A stretch of DNA of 64,000 nucleotides. Source: Minisyncoccota bacterium (GTDB lineage Bacteria; Patescibacteriota; Minisyncoccia; Phycocordibacterales; WO2-35-19). Below, in pieces: positions 32,063-55,203 of the stretch. Made by a program: the position numbers and the translations under genes. The notes beneath the pieces are model-generated. The model saw nothing but the letters and a program-made list of their open reading frames with translations, was not told the DNA's origin and searched no databases. Every line of letters begins with the position of its first letter. The stretch's first letter is position 1. Where the stretch lies: assembly GCA_036517255.1 (NCBI GenBank), contig DATDXE010000014.1, forward strand, positions 9,994 to 73,993, in the 5' to 3' direction.

Positions 32063-32135
32063 CCGCCCGTAGCTCAGTCGGTAGAGCAGCTCCCTTTTAA
32101 GGAGAGGGTCGCAGGTTCGATTCCTGCCGGGCGGA
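32063..32135 (+). tRNA. tRNA-Lys (anticodon TTT), no encoded CCA
   Basis: Manual cloverleaf: acceptor ccgcccg/cgggcgg, anticodon loop cttttaa, T-loop ttcgatt. Confidence 0.85.
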
Positions 32136-32138
32136 CAA

Positions 32139-33183: not shown

Positions 33184-33861
33184 ATGACCGAACAACAGAC
33201 ACCGAAACTAATGGGGGTTCTCGTCGAGCACCAAGACGCATTCTCCCCGCTACCGATCGAAGACGCCCAATGGGTGATTCGGAATCCCAAAGAAGCAATC
33301 TCACTCTTCTTGATTGCGGTGAAAAACCGAGTACGAGAAGCGGCGACTACGATCAAAAACATTCTCTCTCCAGTCAAAAAGATCACCATCGCGGCGACGG
33401 CGGAGAAGAGGACGGAGGAGTGTTTCGCGGACAGCAAGAAGTACTACCGCGACCCCAGCGTTCTCTCGTTGCTTCCGGAATTTCAGCCAGCACGGGGGGT
33501 CGAGCAAGGGCAAGTGAGTCAGCTCAACGAGAGATCCAAGTTTTTGGGGATGGTGCAGAGTCTCCTCGGTGTAATGGAAGACGGTATCGCCGTTCTCTCA
33601 CGGCTCATCATTGAGTCTTTCCACATCTATACCTTGACCCAAATCGAGCAGCTCGTCGAGCGGCAAGAGGCAGGTGAGGATGTAGGCCTTCTCACGAACG
33701 GCTGGGGCAACTTCTTTCTGGTGCTGAATCGGGAAGGTAGCGTCTCGGTCGTCGATGTCATTCGGGCTGGCAGTCAGTGGCTCTTCTTCGCTTACGTCCT
33801 CGGCTTCGTCCGCGTCTGGTCTGTCGGGCGCCGCTTCTTCTCTCGCAACAAGACCCTGTGA
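33184..33861 (+). CDS. DGR target protein 1 (variable protein; VR at C-terminus), GC-rich
   Basis: 3' 111 nt match downstream TR 34116-34226 except at TR adenines; last 37 codons hypervariable-type Asn-derived positions. Confidence 0.8.
   Translation: MTEQQTPKLMGVLVEHQDAFSPLPIEDAQWVIRNPKEAISLFLIAVKNRVREAATTIKNILSPVKKITIAATAEKRTEECFADSKKYYRDPSVLSLLPEFQPARGVEQGQVSQLNERSKFLGMVQSLLGVMEDGIAVLSRLIIESFHIYTLTQIEQLVERQEAGEDVGLLTNGWGNFFLVLNREGSVSVVDVIRAGSQWLFFAYVLGFVRVWSVGRRFFSRNKTL
33739..33849 (+). repeat. DGR variable repeat VR1
   Basis: 111 nt aligned to TR1 with about 20 mismatches, every mismatch at a TR adenine (TR AAT/AAC codons). Confidence 0.9.
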
Positions 33862-33895
33862 TCCTTTGAATCTTTTTGGACACTTGGTCTTACTT

Positions 33896-33921
33896 CCCCA
33901 GTCTGTTTCGGCAGGCTGGGG
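33896..33921 (+). promoter_or_regulatory. GC hairpin 47 nt downstream of VR1 (ccccagtctg-tttcgg-caggctgggg), candidate DGR homing hairpin/cruciform
   Basis: 10-bp stem with one G-T position, located just 3' of VR/IMH as in characterised DGRs. Confidence 0.45.
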
Positions 33922-34115
33922 ATTTCATTTATAATAAATAAGAATACGCTGGCATCTTTGGGTTATTCTAAAGGTGGCGATTCAAAGCCAACAATTTTTG
34001 TCGGCTTCAAAAAATAAATAGTTGGTGCACTCCTTCAAGAAGTTAAAAACTTCAAAGGCGAAATCAACTCAGAGAGAATTCAATGAGTGGTGACTATAGA
34101 AGGTGGGGTGTACAA

Positions 34116-34226
34116 AGCGTCTCGGTCGTCAATGTCAATCGGAATGACAGTCAGTGGAACTTCTACGCTTACGACCTCGGCAACGACAACGTCTGGAATG
34201 TCGAGAACCGCTTCTTCTCTCGAAAC
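34116..34226 (+). repeat. DGR template repeat TR1 (adenine-rich, noncoding)
   Basis: Invariant partner of VR1; contains AAC/AAT at all variable positions. Confidence 0.9.
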
Positions 34227-34597
34227 TATCTGTTTTCCCCAAAGGAATTAACTCCTGAGGGGTTTTTCTTTTCTAAATATTCTTTCCAACCAGAGAGCAT
34301 TTTGCCTGCATCTACCAGTACTGGAGAAATTCTTACATATTTTTTGTCTACAAGTATTTTACATTCCCACATGAGGAGAAGGAAAAACTTGGCCAAATCA
34401 TTTTTTATCATAGCCTCTGATACCAGTTCAATTTTTCGAATTCCTTTGCTGTAGGCGGCTCTAAAAGTAAGATCGAGAGTTTCTAAAAGAAGTCTGTCTA
34501 TTTTTACCCCTATCGTTTGCCTGTGGCTTTTAGAAATGTGAGGAAGTATCTCCTGCCAGACCTTATACCCAAGTTTTAAACACTCTAGCACTGGCAA
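34226..34597 (-). CDS. avd: Avd-like accessory variability determinant (four-helix-bundle protein), TTG start, stop overlaps TR1 end
   Basis: 123 aa, basic helical protein with Avd/23S-IVS four-helix-bundle pattern (YKVWQ..., LLLMWECKIL); between TR and RT. Confidence 0.6.
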   Translation of the reverse strand: MPVLECLKLGYKVWQEILPHISKSHRQTIGVKIDRLLLETLDLTFRAAYSKGIRKIELVSEAMIKNDLAKFFLLLMWECKILVDKKYVRISPVLVDAGKMLSGWKEYLEKKNPSGVNSFGENR

Positions 34598-34626: not shown

Positions 34627-35640
34627 ATGAAAATTCAGCTTGCTCACAGTTATGATGATATCATTTCAATCAAAAATTTACTCGAAGCTTGGGAAGAATT
34701 TATACCGGGGAAAAGAAATAAAGAAGATGTGGCTAAGTTTGCTCTCGACTTGATGGATAATATTGTTTCCCTGCATAAGGATTTGGAGAGCAAAAAATAT
34801 AGACATGGTGCCTATACTGCTTTCAATATATCTGATCCAAAACCTAGGAATATTCACAAAGCTAATGTGAGAGATAGGCTATTGCATCGCGCTTTGTACA
34901 GAATCCTTTACCCTCATTTTGACAAAACTTTTTATTCAGAATCATATTCGTGCCGAGTAAATAAAGGTACTCACAAAGCGATGAATAAGTTTAGGAAATT
35001 TGCCAAGAAAGAATCTTTGAATCACTCAAAAACTCTATGGATATTAAAATGTGATATAAGAAAATTTTTTGCTTCCATTGACCACAATATTTTGTGTAAA
35101 ATTGTCGAAAAATACATACCCGATCAAAATATAAACTGGCTACTTACTGAAATTATTGAGAGTTTCCATTCTACTCAAAGAGGTTTCGGCTTACCTTTGG
35201 GTAATGTAACTTCACAGGTATTGGTGAATATTTATATGAATGAATTTGATACTTGGGTAAAACATGTAATGAAAATAAAATATTATATTAGGTATGCGGA
35301 TGATTTTCTGATTTTAAATAAAGATAAAGATTATTTACTCGAGCTTATTCCAAAAATTGCAGATTTTCTGGAAGAAAATTTAAAACTTTCTCTACATCCC
35401 CAAAAGGTTTCTATTCAAACTTTTGCCTCAGGGACTGACTTTCTAGGTTGGGTAAATTTTGTTGATCACAAAGTGTTGCGCACAAGTACAAAAAGAAGAT
35501 TACTCAAAGCTTTATCACAGAGTGAAAATATAAATGTCTTACAATCTTACAGTAGCCTTTTGAAACATGGGAATCAATTTAGGCTTAAAAGTAAGATAAA
35601 TGAAAAAATTGAGATTTTAAGAGGGGGAGTTAATAATTAA
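34627..35640 (+). CDS. DGR reverse transcriptase 1
   Basis: RT motifs: NISDPKPRNIHKANVRDRLLH, IRKFFASIDH, GLPLGNVTSQVLVNIYMNEFD, IRYADDFLIL (YADD catalytic motif); adjacent TR/VR. Confidence 0.85.
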   Translation: MKIQLAHSYDDIISIKNLLEAWEEFIPGKRNKEDVAKFALDLMDNIVSLHKDLESKKYRHGAYTAFNISDPKPRNIHKANVRDRLLHRALYRILYPHFDKTFYSESYSCRVNKGTHKAMNKFRKFAKKESLNHSKTLWILKCDIRKFFASIDHNILCKIVEKYIPDQNINWLLTEIIESFHSTQRGFGLPLGNVTSQVLVNIYMNEFDTWVKHVMKIKYYIRYADDFLILNKDKDYLLELIPKIADFLEENLKLSLHPQKVSIQTFASGTDFLGWVNFVDHKVLRTSTKRRLLKALSQSENINVLQSYSSLLKHGNQFRLKSKINEKIEILRGGVNN

Positions 35641-36559
35641 TTTTGACTTCGGAGATGAGGAGACCTTCGCGATCGCGGAGCTGGATAGTTTCTCTTTTGT
35701 TCCGCCAGAGCGGGCCGAAGCGTTCGAGGTATATGTACCACTCTCTGCCGGCAAAATCGGAATCGTACTTATAATTTGCAACGCAGGAATTGTAATTTAT
35801 TTTAGTTTCTAAATATATTCTGCAACCTGAAGGTAGGGGAGGCTCTATTTTGTTTAAGTTTCTAGGCTCGGTGCAAACTTGAAGGCGGTCAATGTAGTCG
35901 AGGCAACGGTCGTTCTCGTCCATGTCGCTGGAGAATGTCGGTAAATCGACATCGTCAGCGCTTGGACACTGTCTTCCTATGTATGGATAGAAAGTCCTAT
36001 CTTGAGCAAAGTAACCAGTGCATTTGTTTGTTCTGAAAGAAGTATTGATAGGAGAAAAACCTTTGATGATGTAAATACTCTCACCTTGCTTCACTACTAT
36101 GTTTTCAGTGCCTTTAATGTAAGGAAATGGCAGAGTCGAAGCTTTGCCGATAACGGCGGTATTGTTAGTCACAGTGCTTTTGAAATACCAACCAGTGATG
36201 TCGACATACTCATTCTTTTGTAGGTTGTTATTCAGAGTAAAATATTCTTTGCTTGGATCGGGATCGCCAAGGCCGGCAGGGGAGTAAAGATAAAATTTGC
36301 CATAGTATGGTGACCTATTTAATTCACCCACCTTCTTTTCTATCTCCTCTACTGTTTTTTCAGCATTTTGGATTTGCTCGATTGCAGTAGAAGCTTCTTT
36401 TTCTTCCTCATAATTTTGAGGGCTGTTATTTATAGAAGAAGTGCCAAAAAAACTGCCGCCTCCTGATCCAGAATAACTACCTTTAAAATTATCCCAGCCC
36501 AAACCCATGATAATTACTATGGCAACTATGATCACTATTCCATCCTTGTTTCCTTTCAT
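35630..36559 (-). CDS. hypothetical secreted protein (N-terminal TM anchor, Cys-containing C-terminal domain)
   Basis: Hydrophobic N-terminus IVIIVAIVIIMGL; convergent with RT1 (11-nt overlap). Confidence 0.4.
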   Translation of the reverse strand: MKGNKDGIVIIVAIVIIMGLGWDNFKGSYSGSGGGSFFGTSSINNSPQNYEEEKEASTAIEQIQNAEKTVEEIEKKVGELNRSPYYGKFYLYSPAGLGDPDPSKEYFTLNNNLQKNEYVDITGWYFKSTVTNNTAVIGKASTLPFPYIKGTENIVVKQGESIYIIKGFSPINTSFRTNKCTGYFAQDRTFYPYIGRQCPSADDVDLPTFSSDMDENDRCLDYIDRLQVCTEPRNLNKIEPPLPSGCRIYLETKINYNSCVANYKYDSDFAGREWYIYLERFGPLWRNKRETIQLRDREGLLISEVKINY

Positions 36560-52620: not shown

Positions 52621-53361
52621 GTGTTTTTAACGAAAGATGAGGGCGACTATATGTCGATTGCATCTACTGTAAAAGAAGGTCAGATCGATGAGATCTGCCG
52701 GACTGCCGACGCATTTACGAAATCCGTGGTGCGTACTGCTCTCGAAGAATTGATTGCCGAAGGCGAACTCGAAACTGAGGGAGCTCAGCGGGTAATCTCA
52801 AATGGTGATCGTCTGAGAGCCAAAATGATCCCCGCCTACAAGGTGGCGATTGCGGAACTCTCAACGAAAAGAACGAGCTGTCTTGCACTCATTTCGAGTG
52901 GCAAGAAGGTCGTCATCAAGGCTACGACTGGCAAGAAATTGATCAGTGGGGCTAAGGACACGTTCCCTGGTTGGATCGATGCCGACTTTACAAATTACGG
53001 CTGCGATGTTCTCGGAGAGGCGAAGCCGGAAACGCCAGTCGAAGTCTTCGAGATGACAGCTGCCGCTGATTTCTCGGGCATATTTGGGAGTTTCGATGTT
53101 GAGCTCGATGATCTCGCCTTCGACCAAGAGCAGGTGATCGAGTTTGCCCGCGAAAATACAGACTGGCTTCATCCGGAAGGCTACGCCACCTTGCTTCTTT
53201 TCAAAGTTGGAAAAGGTGGGAAAAAGAAGTTCTTCGTGGCGCGTGTCTGCCGGAGTGCCGGCCGTCTCGAGGCCTATGCCCACCACTTTTCGATCGACTA
53301 TGTCTGGGATGCCGAGCACCGGTATCGTGTGGTTGTCCCGCAACTGAAACTCAAATCTTAG
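52621..53361 (+). CDS. DGR target protein 2 (VR at C-terminus), moderately GC-rich
   Basis: 3' 117 nt match TR 53665-53781 except at TR adenines. Confidence 0.8.
   Translation: MFLTKDEGDYMSIASTVKEGQIDEICRTADAFTKSVVRTALEELIAEGELETEGAQRVISNGDRLRAKMIPAYKVAIAELSTKRTSCLALISSGKKVVIKATTGKKLISGAKDTFPGWIDADFTNYGCDVLGEAKPETPVEVFEMTAAADFSGIFGSFDVELDDLAFDQEQVIEFARENTDWLHPEGYATLLLFKVGKGGKKKFFVARVCRSAGRLEAYAHHFSIDYVWDAEHRYRVVVPQLKLKS
53230..53346 (+). repeat. DGR variable repeat VR2
   Basis: 117 nt aligned to TR2 with about 17 mismatches, all at TR adenines. Confidence 0.9.
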
Positions 53362-53664
53362 GGCTCGACCCTTTGATTCTCAATCCCTTGGACCCTCTAT
53401 CAACTTTGGTTGGTATGGCCCAAGGGATTTTTGTTATACTAATATTCCAATATATGGATGCATCGCGGTCATGACTTCGATGCCATGATTGGGTGAAAAT
53501 ATTATTTGAGAATTTTGTTGGCTACGGCTTATAGAAGAGTAGATATATTTTTACAAACAAAAAATATTTAGTTGGTGTAGTAAACTGGAGGACTTTTATG
53601 TCCCAAATAATATAGCTTTTTGTCGTGATTCGGCAGATTGCTTTTTGGATGGTTTACTGCACAT

Positions 53665-53781
53665 TTCTTCGTGGCGAATGTCTACCGGAATGCCGGCAAT
53701 CTCAAGGCCAATGCCAACCACTTTTCGAACGACAATGTCTGGAATGCCGAGAACCGGAATCGTGTGGTTGTCCCGAAACTA
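53665..53781 (+). repeat. DGR template repeat TR2
   Basis: Adenine-rich invariant partner of VR2; shares gacaa(c/t)gtctggaatg(t/c)cgagaacc core with TR1. Confidence 0.9.
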
Positions 53782-53804
53782 GTTATTTCTTCCCGAGAAA
53801 TTTA

Positions 53805-54149
53805 TTACTTCGCGGGGAGTTTTGTTTCCAAGCCTTTCTTCCATCCTCCGAGCATTCGACCTATCTCTTCAAGTTTCACTGACAGTTCAGAATGTTTTTC
53901 TGTCGGTATGAGTTTATTCTCCCAAGCTAGTTGCACGAAGAATTTTACTGCATCGAGTTTTGAGATCGTCTTCCTAAGTGCTATAATTTTCTCTACTGTT
54001 GGCAGATAAGCTGAATTTAGAGTGTATTCCAGGAGAGATAAGAGACTCTGGTCTAATCTATAACCGATTCCGAACCTTTCGACCCTAGGGAAGTTCCTTA
54101 AAATATTGAGCCAGAGAGAATAAACCTCTTTTTCTTTTATAATTACCAC
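53805..54149 (-). CDS. avd: Avd-like accessory variability determinant 2 (GTG start)
   Basis: 114 aa helical protein with same pattern and position as avd1. Confidence 0.6.
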   Translation of the reverse strand: MVIIKEKEVYSLWLNILRNFPRVERFGIGYRLDQSLLSLLEYTLNSAYLPTVEKIIALRKTISKLDAVKFFVQLAWENKLIPTEKHSELSVKLEEIGRMLGGWKKGLETKLPAK

Positions 54150-54204: not shown

Positions 54205-55203
54205 ATGAAAAATAAAATAATCATCTCTTATCTAGATATTATATCAGTTCAAAATCTTTACGAAGCATGGGAAGAATTTCTGCCCGGAAAAAAGAAGAAA
54301 GAAGATGTGGCAGAATTTGCATTAAATTTGTCTAGTAATATTTTAAAATTGCATTCCGATCTAGTTAATAGAAATTATACCCATGGAGCTTACAAAGCTT
54401 TTAACATTTCTGACCCAAAACCTCGTAATATTCATAAAGCCTCTGTTCGCGATCGGCTCTTGCACCATGCTATTTATAAAATCCTGTACCCATACTTCGA
54501 TAGGCTTTTTATTTTTGACTCATATTCCTGTCGTGTGGCTAAAGGAACACACAAAGCCATAGAAAGATTTAAAAAATTTGGAAACCAAGTCTCCAAGAGC
54601 AATACCAAAACTTGTTGGGTTTTGAAGTGTGACATACGAAAATTTTTTGCAAGTATAAATCATAAGATTTTGCTAGACATTTTAAAAAAATATATAAAAG
54701 ACCGAGAAATCATTTGGCTTCTAGAAAGAATTATATTAAGTTTCTTTTCAACAAAGGTTGGGGTCGGTTTACCTCTGGGCAATCTTACGTCTCAACTTTT
54801 GGTGAATATTTATATGAATGAATTTGATCAATATATAAAACATATATTAAAAATTCGACATTATATACGTTATGCCGATGATTTTGTTTTTCTTGATACT
54901 GATAAGGATCGGCTTTTGGAACTTATTCCTAGGACAGCTGATTTTCTAGACGAGCACCTCAAACTACAAATTCATCCTGACAAACTGTTTATCCGAACTC
55001 TTGCTTCTGGCTTGGATTTTCTCGGCTGGGTACATTTTCCGAAATATCGAGTATTGCGGACCGTAACAAAAAGGAGAATGTTCAAAAGAATAAAAGAAGT
55101 AGAGTGGAATAAAGAGACGGTAGGTTCTTATCTTGGGATGCTAAGATGGGGGGATAATTACAATCTGGAGCAGATTATAGAAGATGAAAAATCGTTGCAC
55201 TGA
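54205..55203 (+). CDS. DGR reverse transcriptase 2 (paralog of RT1)
   Basis: Same RT motifs incl. IRYADDFVFL; roughly 65% identical to RT1 by eye. Confidence 0.85.
   Translation: MKNKIIISYLDIISVQNLYEAWEEFLPGKKKKEDVAEFALNLSSNILKLHSDLVNRNYTHGAYKAFNISDPKPRNIHKASVRDRLLHHAIYKILYPYFDRLFIFDSYSCRVAKGTHKAIERFKKFGNQVSKSNTKTCWVLKCDIRKFFASINHKILLDILKKYIKDREIIWLLERIILSFFSTKVGVGLPLGNLTSQLLVNIYMNEFDQYIKHILKIRHYIRYADDFVFLDTDKDRLLELIPRTADFLDEHLKLQIHPDKLFIRTLASGLDFLGWVHFPKYRVLRTVTKRRMFKRIKEVEWNKETVGSYLGMLRWGDNYNLEQIIEDEKSLH

Follow-up and report, generated by a model that had tools for sequence, protein, structure and literature searches.

The 64,000-nt window analyzed here, taken as one stretch from contig DATDXE010000014.1 of a Minisyncoccota bacterium (Patescibacteriota), carries two diversity-generating retroelements (DGRs), each with a target gene, a template repeat (TR), a gene for the accessory variability determinant (Avd) and a gene for a reverse transcriptase (RT). 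The gene at 33184–33861 encodes the target of the first element, T1, and a paralogous gene further downstream encodes the target of the second, T2. Exact matches assign the source to a metagenome-assembled genome of Candidatus Paceibacterota. An original prediction, made from the letters of the window, had singled out both as cytoplasmic-looking targets that lack the signature of C-type lectin (CLec) domains.

Two paralogous DGR cassettes

Both cassettes have the same order, target on the forward strand, TR, Avd on the reverse strand and RT on the forward strand. Cassette 1 contains the following features:

33184–33861, forward strand: T1, the DGR variable protein of cassette 1 (open reading frame of 225 aa)
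33739–33849, forward strand: variable repeat 1 (VR1), a 111-nt repeat shared with TR1 that encodes T1 residues 186–222
33895–33922, forward strand: GC-rich inverted repeat with 11-bp arms and a 6-nt loop, starting 46 nt 3′ of VR1
34116–34226, forward strand: TR1, with 9 AAY codons and 9 further codons where mutation of an adenine changes the encoded amino acid
34226–34597, reverse strand: Avd1, a four-helix Avd homologue of 123 aa that abuts the 3′ end of TR1
34627–35640, forward strand: RT1, the DGR reverse transcriptase (337 aa; RVT_1 89.4 bits; PADLOC RT 1e-53)

Cassette 2 contains the corresponding features:

52651–53361, forward strand: T2, the paralogous variable protein (236 aa from ATG; the alternative start GTG 52621 gives 246 aa)
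53230–53345, forward strand: VR2, which differs from TR2 at 15 positions, 15/15 of them TR adenines
53665–53780, forward strand: TR2, with 11 AAY codons and homologous to TR1
53805–54149, reverse strand: Avd2 (114 aa; PF22296 60.9 bits, over the cut-off; NF033474 66 bits)
54205–55203, forward strand: RT2 (332 aa; RVT_1 78.4 bits)

VR1 and TR1 differ at 20 positions, which alter 13 codons, and all 20 (20/20) are TR adenines; were the differences spread randomly over the bases, this pattern would have a probability of about 0.25^20. Avd1 is recognized less strongly than Avd2, with 27.6 bits against PF22296 (bAvd), under the cut-off of 40, and 32 bits against NF033474. RT1 and RT2 are 61% identical, Avd1 and Avd2 37% identical, and TR1 and TR2 can be aligned. 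The relatedness of the RTs, Avds and TRs, together with the complete set of parts, therefore identifies two paralogous, complete DGRs, and both elements are real, ordinary DGRs. TR1 encodes about 10^16 possible protein variants, and the two TRs, both of standard AAY design, about 10^16–10^17. In both cassettes, the VR ends 12–16 nt ahead of the target stop codon.

The ATG at 52651 is the T2 start used by its homologues and by the NCBI call. The length of 246 aa originally given for T2 holds from GTG 52621, but the homologues and NCBI favor 236 aa; the 225 aa given for T1 stands. The two peptides quoted as TR-encoded tails are indeed present, yet they are translations of the TRs (open reading frames 34083–34454 and 53638–54009) and not protein tails. 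The actual tails of the target proteins are SVSVVDVIRAGSQWLFFAYVLGFVRVWSVGRRFFSRNKTL and FFVARVCRSAGRLEAYAHHFSIDYVWDAEHRYRVVVPQLKLKS.

The inverted repeat that follows VR1 is a candidate for the hairpin or cruciform that trails the site of initiation of mutagenic homing (IMH, where retrohoming starts at the 3′ end of a VR) in some DGRs. Such structures are known from the Bordetella and Legionella DGRs, and a GC-rich inverted repeat after the IMH is present in just 34% of DGRs (summarized in PMC5758913). VR2 is trailed by a weaker inverted repeat than that of VR1. Because the antisense avd gene sits between TR and RT, directly against the 3′ end of the TR, the DNA 3′ of the TR is the reverse complement of avd coding sequence. 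This antisense layout recurs in 49/79 Patescibacteria loci. Wu et al. (2018) noted a cassette architecture specific to the candidate phyla radiation (CPR; PMC5758913), and the layout is probably their architecture B3, which makes up 90% of CPR DGRs according to that survey (PMC5758913).

A phage origin of cassette 1 is ruled out by the flanking genes that it has in common with a distant relative, where the sigma factor, DoxX, SpoU, cassette, 314-aa protein, Fpg and Mur ligase genes follow in the same order. Since this chromosomal neighborhood is conserved, cassette 1 is cellular and no recent phage insertion.

One Patescibacteria family with interchangeable N-termini

BLAST finds no similarity between T1 and T2 (E 7.9), and on that view the two are unrelated. 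The view is overturned by profile–profile comparison, in which hhalign aligns the two families over 143 columns with a probability of 98.9% (E 3e-17); the families are only 15–25% identical. The homologues of T1 (30) and T2 (77) form separate sets, all of them unnamed Patescibacteria proteins. The segments encoded by TR1 and TR2 align residue for residue (VxNVxRN...NDNVWNxENR) and have in common the scaffold positions V, R, A, V-W and R as well as identical variable positions. A joint T1 and T2 profile, searched against 1.84 billion cluster representatives, retrieves 3,718 clusters at E≤1e-3; under the stricter thresholds of E≤1e-10 and E≤1e-30, 2,253 and 870 remain. These profile comparisons show T1 and T2 as members of one large superfamily, defined by a predicted α+β C-terminal domain of ~155 aa. 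The domain is covered by no database model, and its members yielded no Pfam domain.

The named genome matches (one genome per species) all belong to Patescibacteria, except for one metagenome-assembled genome labeled Gammaproteobacteria, and span Paceibacterota, Nomura-, Taylor-, Zambryskii-, Moran-, Falkow- and Yonathbacteria. A tblastn search of 50,697 phage records returned no phage homologue.

Most members of the family are 200–240 aa long. Some consist of the domain alone (P0148, 153 aa), and a few carry two to five tandem copies (P0108, P0109, P0122, P0130 and P0181). In the fused proteins each copy has its own hypervariable tail; P0130 (926 aa) has five copies. In T1, a helical N-terminal module (residues 1–55) that is poorly conserved among homologues precedes the conserved VR-scaffold domain (about 56–222), while T2 joins a different, three-helix module to the same C-terminal domain. 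Several unrelated N-terminal modules occur on this domain and are interchangeable. In L002 (3138–3806), the N-terminus of a non-target protein encoded beside an orphan family member shares 48% identity with the ~60-aa module of t343, a catalogued CPR target. As this module is found on a non-target protein, N-terminal modules circulate independently of the VR domain. The interchangeability of the modules, and the sharing of one with a non-target protein, suggests that they serve docking or oligomerization.

One homologue, P0005 (281 aa), joins the N-terminus of a SpoU methylase (PF00588) to the target domain, and a SpoU gene lies directly upstream of T1 in the window. P0005 could reflect a genuine fusion of the two genes or an artifact of frameshift or assembly.

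The family is linked to DGRs well beyond this contig. Among 79 genome loci, Avd is encoded in 49 and RT in 42, all in the order target(+), Avd(−), RT(+); among the 54 loci with at least 4 kb of downstream sequence, 31 include an RT, and 23 lack both RT and Avd. Two tandem family targets for one TR occur in some relatives (L004 4199–5720; L006 5001–7482). At one two-target locus, the targets are split by a DUF6922/AbiEii toxin–antitoxin pair.

Variation within the family follows the DGR design. In an alignment of 309 domain sequences, the columns of highest entropy (3.2–3.7 bits) are exactly the AAY positions of TR1 and TR2, and the conserved columns that alternate with them mostly have 0.45–1.3 bits. 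Several protein pairs are 100% identical over 111–119 non-VR columns and just 69–86% identical in the VR, which is the signature of natural DGR diversification.

Predicted structure and fold of the variable domain

To model the domain, AlphaFold2 was run on the family alignments of 30 (T1) and 77 (T2) sequences. The predicted local distance difference test score (pLDDT) is 88.4 for T1 (>92 for residues 61–220) and 92.3 for T2. With the VR included, the domain exceeds 92, and the 55-residue N-terminal module of T1 is modeled at lower confidence. The T2 domain begins with N-terminal strands (78–89) and an excursion (90–127), followed by a strand (128–135), two helices (141–146 and 159–168), a meander of three strands (180–188, 191–202 and 205–212), a 13-residue loop that contains the invariant Trp and a bridge at 219, and a last strand (226–230). 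The secondary structure of T1 is equivalent, and the order of elements is β1-α1-α2-β2-β3-β4-(β4′)-β5 with the VR spanning β3 to β5. The AlphaFold secondary structure of VR1 accordingly runs through β3, β4, a loop with the invariant W212 and the invariant β5. With three or four helices in the domain, the models are α+β and not all-β as in immunoglobulin (Ig)-like folds, and no Ig match was found in Pfam for the targets or for the 70 family members that were scanned. The strands are long (8–12 residues) and form a tight meander. Strands of typical C-type lectin-like domains (CTLDs) are short.

The Trp (W212 in T1 and W219 in T2, in 236-aa numbering) is invariant in the two alignments and 94% conserved family-wide; the last strand is also conserved (RFFxRN in one target and RVVVPQL in the other). 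The altered residues of T1 are located on β3 (191, 193 and 195), in the β3–β4 turn (196), on β4 (200, 202 and 205) and in the loop (208–210, 213, 215 and 216). Between them on the strands lie the conserved residues V, V, R and W, F, A, and because of this alternation along β3–β4 the diversified residues should share one face.

Pseudolikelihood coevolution analysis of 377 domain sequences (315 effective sequences) recovers the β2–β3 and β3–β4 hairpins, which serve as controls; an earlier mean-field direct coupling analysis on 263 sequences was noisy. The strongest contacts pack the N-terminal strands and segment 96–103 on one face of helix α2, and further contacts connect positions 118 and 120 with β2 and helix α1 with β5.

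The sequence searches found no trace of a known lectin scaffold. T1 and T2 have no match in Pfam, NCBIfam, PHROGs or PADLOC, and their PDB profile searches contain no CLec protein. Lectin, FGE-sulfatase and DUF1566 models match 0/70 family members even at E≤10. The absence of a CLec signature, as originally proposed, is thus borne out at the sequence level. The profile searches suggested at that time, which include the N-terminal domains, matched only armadillo repeats and coiled coils in the PDB, all on the helical N-termini and without significance. For the models from structure prediction, the other check proposed, Foldseek found no significant CLec match. The VRs (37 aa) are also shorter than classic ones, as had been noted, but VR length does not discriminate them from CLec, because AvpA, a solved CLec protein, has a VR of 27 residues (PMC5006420).

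The models of both targets were compared by Foldseek with 350,542 PDB chains, and that of T2 also with BFVD. The weak matches are PAS, NTF2-like, cystatin and designed curved-sheet proteins. The one long superposition of T2 with a lower root mean square deviation (rmsd) is on the C-type lectin domain of proMBP (8hgg_A; 129 columns, TM-score 0.35), a non-significant match (E 1.7). As defined for DGR variable proteins, the CLec core is composed of β1 paired with β5, two roughly perpendicular helices and a β2-β3-β4-β4′ sheet; an aromatic residue at the base of the variable site and the last strand do not vary. The element order, invariant Trp and invariant last strand of T1 and T2 fit this definition, although order alone does not define a fold.

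Known CLec variable proteins (Bordetella phage Mtd, Treponema TvpA, Nanoarchaeota AvpA and Thermus TaqVP) likewise have a C-terminal VR derived from an AAY-rich TR. T1 and T2 resemble those solved in that variable residues run from β3 to the invariant last strand, the VR has an invariant aromatic residue and helices and strands follow in the same order. In addition, the domain of T1 and T2, like that of AvpA, cannot be assigned by sequence. Unlike the solved proteins, to none of which they show sequence or Foldseek similarity, T1 and T2 have long regular strands and an extra N-terminal sub-structure of ~50 residues, and lack a signal, a lipobox or a phage-tail context; their membership of the fold is unproven.

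Two scaffolds are compatible with these data. We lean towards a very divergent, compact CLec-type scaffold, which is somewhat the likelier, with an unrelated scaffold as the lesser possibility and the small remainder left to model error. The VR domain would in the second case be a new, non-CLec scaffold, for example an α+β roll with a variable β-sheet face, and the first DGR variable domain outside CLec. This possibility draws on the lack of a CLec match in Pfam, NCBIfam, PDB profiles and the 70 members, on the lack of any significant Foldseek match, with weak matches mostly to NTF2-like, cystatin, PAS and designed curved-sheet proteins, on the long strands in a tight meander unlike a typical CTLD, and on a β1–β5 pairing that coevolution does not support. 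However, β5 gives no coevolution signal because it is too conserved, all DGR variable domains solved are CLec, including AvpA (PMC5006420), the element order, invariant VR aromatic and invariant last strand fit CLec, and the best long superposition is the CTLD of proMBP. The known DGR CLec subclasses are only weakly alike, and the element order, invariant Trp and invariant last strand of T1 and T2 would also be expected of a compact CLec, so that a new fold cannot yet be claimed. Of the original suggestion of a distinct fold or an intracellular target, it holds that both proteins are genuine DGR targets with no export signal and no significant structural neighbor, and the non-CLec fold is the part that does not follow.

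Localization, proposed function and neighboring genes

Localization was assessed by hydropathy alone, with a Kyte-Doolittle mean of 1.6 as the threshold for a transmembrane (TM) helix. The N-termini of T1 and T2 are acidic and hydrophilic, and the maximum 19-residue mean is 1.48 for T1 and 0.94 for T2. A missed upstream start that conceals a signal peptide is ruled out: in-frame stop codons precede the T1 and T2 starts by 10 and 12 codons, respectively, so a longer N-terminus is impossible. By this measure, neither target has a signal peptide or TM helix, in agreement with the original prediction. Among 255 family members, one (P0237) has a convincing N-terminal hydrophobic segment and 254/255 do not; the other hydrophobic windows are core strands of the domain or amphipathic helices. 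No lipobox, sorting motif or secretion gene was found in the proteins or nearby, in the window and at the loci of relatives. The predicted absence of export signals extends to nearly the whole family, and T1 and T2 are probably intracellular.

We consider it probable that two paralogous, chromosomal DGRs diversify T1 and T2, variable proteins with a soluble, signal-less target domain. Each TR is copied into its own VR, with changes at adenines only, and an RT and an Avd adjoin each TR. In the proposed reading, the diversified residues would line the β3–β4 hairpin and then the loop around the invariant Trp, giving a binding surface that varies, with the invariant last strand closing the domain. 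A protein of the T1/T2 type would thus be a soluble binding module with ~10^16 possible specificities that acts inside the cell by default, and its N-terminal module would dock it to a partner or oligomerize it.

A different localization is conceivable, in which the proteins are shown outside the cell via a non-classical route (pilus or competence machinery, lysis, or a partner of the N-terminal module) and attach to host cells. Reviews and surveys ascribe CPR DGRs to the attachment of episymbionts to their hosts (PMC10221324, PMC7495880), the N-terminal modules vary and resemble docking elements, and P0237 has a true N-terminal hydrophobic segment. We nevertheless regard display outside the cell as somewhat unlikely, given the 254/255 members that lack such a segment, the lack of a lipobox, sorting motif or nearby secretion gene, and the TM helix or signal peptide that most other cellular DGR targets have and these proteins do not (PMC8144416). 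It is very improbable that the AlphaFold models are confidently wrong, owing to a shallow alignment or hypervariable columns, and say nothing about the fold: the T1 alignment has 30 sequences only and the conclusions are drawn from secondary structure, but two independent alignments (30 and 77 sequences) of families 15–25% identical lead to the same element order, the five models per target agree (pLDDT 85–92), and independently computed coevolution contacts match the predicted hairpins and helix packing.

Several points weigh against the proposal of a soluble, intracellular variable protein with one binding face. The intracellular call is based on hydropathy heuristics and the absence of a signal. 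Export routes of Patescibacteria are poorly known. The neighbors of the cassettes are housekeeping genes (SpoU, Fpg, RluA and L19) that give no hint at function. At 23/54 loci with enough flanking sequence (~43%), no RT or Avd is encoded within 6 kb (L010, L015, L027, L031 and others; L002 and L005); the members at these loci may be remote targets served in trans, remnants of decayed cassettes, or DGR-independent. The placement of ~13 diversified residues on one exposed face is deduced from strand periodicity. The Foldseek matches all have E values of 0.2 or more, and the solved DGR variable proteins are absent from them. The β1–β5 coevolution ladder reaches z 2.6 against a 99.9th-percentile background of 5.3, on a strand too conserved to inform.

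The family includes catalogued targets. The family profile recovers the CPR proteins t311 (LBYE01000042) and t343 (LBQD01000003) with E-values of 8e-62 and 2e-65, respectively; both are labeled ‘misc’ in Supplementary Data 8 of Roux et al. (2021; PMC8144416). That study found CPR clade-2 targets typically to have no TM or conserved domains, left their non-membrane status open, and predicted new CLec variants in CPR (PMC8144416). Wu et al. (2018) left CPR VRs undecided between CLec, Ig and other folds, with 45 VRs ungrouped or ‘UVR’ and most without motifs (PMC5758913). The remark in the original prediction that CPR DGR targets are poorly characterized agrees with both surveys (PMC8144416, PMC5758913), which left the VRs unclassified, the subfamilies unlinked, the family size unmeasured and the structure unmodeled. 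The RTs of most CPR DGRs group apart in a clade of their own (PMC10907252).

Dore et al. (2024; PMC10907252) proposed CLec ‘antigen sensors’ of the cytoplasm that are coupled to STAND/AAA NTPases by fusion or as partners, and AAA-CLec targets have been reported for CPR. Like these sensors, T1 and T2 are predicted intracellular, DGR-diversified binders, and several independent DGRs per genome are possible in both cases. Unlike them, T1 and T2 are just ~225–240 aa long and have no NTPase or effector domain within or beside them in the Pfam, NCBIfam and PADLOC searches. Secreted or membrane-anchored targets (LdtA-type lipoproteins and ‘Cell_TM’ clusters) differ in the N-terminal signal, lipobox or TM segment that, by the same heuristics, is absent from T1 and T2. 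The puzzle of the CPR targets is thus already published (PMC8144416, PMC5758913), and cytoplasmic DGR targets have already been proposed (PMC10907252). New here are the unification of the subfamilies, the size and taxonomic bounds of the family, its family-wide lack of an export signal, and confident models without a structural neighbor.

DGRs are unusually common in Patescibacteria (CPR), and their targets there are the least understood. A signal-less family with a confident model offers a tractable object, a soluble protein of 150–240 aa suited to crystallography and binding screens, and whichever fold emerges, the family bears on the use of intracellular hypervariable binders by episymbionts with reduced genomes. 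The strongest form of the idea, that the ~155-aa domain is a hypervariation scaffold unrelated to CLec that diversifies small soluble intracellular proteins in thousands of Patescibacteria lineages, is unlikely. If it were true, these bacteria would possess an antibody-like repertoire of cytoplasmic binders with no attached NTPase or effector, the rule that every DGR VR sits in a CLec fold would break, and CLec would fall as the universal answer to massive sequence variation. If the domain is a compact CLec instead, the fold would be extended to a new minimal subclass.

The base composition of the cassettes is uneven. The target genes are GC-rich and A-poor over their full length, beyond the VR (T1: GC 0.55, GC at third codon positions (GC3) 0.69, A 0.23; T2: GC 0.52), against a window average GC of 0.41, and the RT genes are unusually AT-rich (GC 0.32–0.34, GC3 0.28–0.30). 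The contrast between a GC-rich target and an AT-rich RT is repeated in two relatives' loci (L001 and L002).

Overlapping the 3′ end of RT1, the reverse strand at 35630–36559 encodes a protein of 309 aa, whose N-terminus carries a TM segment and whose C-terminal part is rich in Cys. It has no PHROG match, and its counterpart at the same position in L001 (~40% identity) has no Pfam match recorded. Upstream of T1, a tRNA gene lies at 32063–32136 on the forward strand. ARAGORN calls it a suppressor ‘tRNA-Stop’ with anticodon UUA, and Rfam finds a solid tRNA (70 bits). When numbered canonically, it has the anticodon loop CUUUUAA and reads as tRNA-Lys(UUU), with G27 and A43 mismatched and a variable loop of 5 nt; the suppressor call is probably a register artifact.
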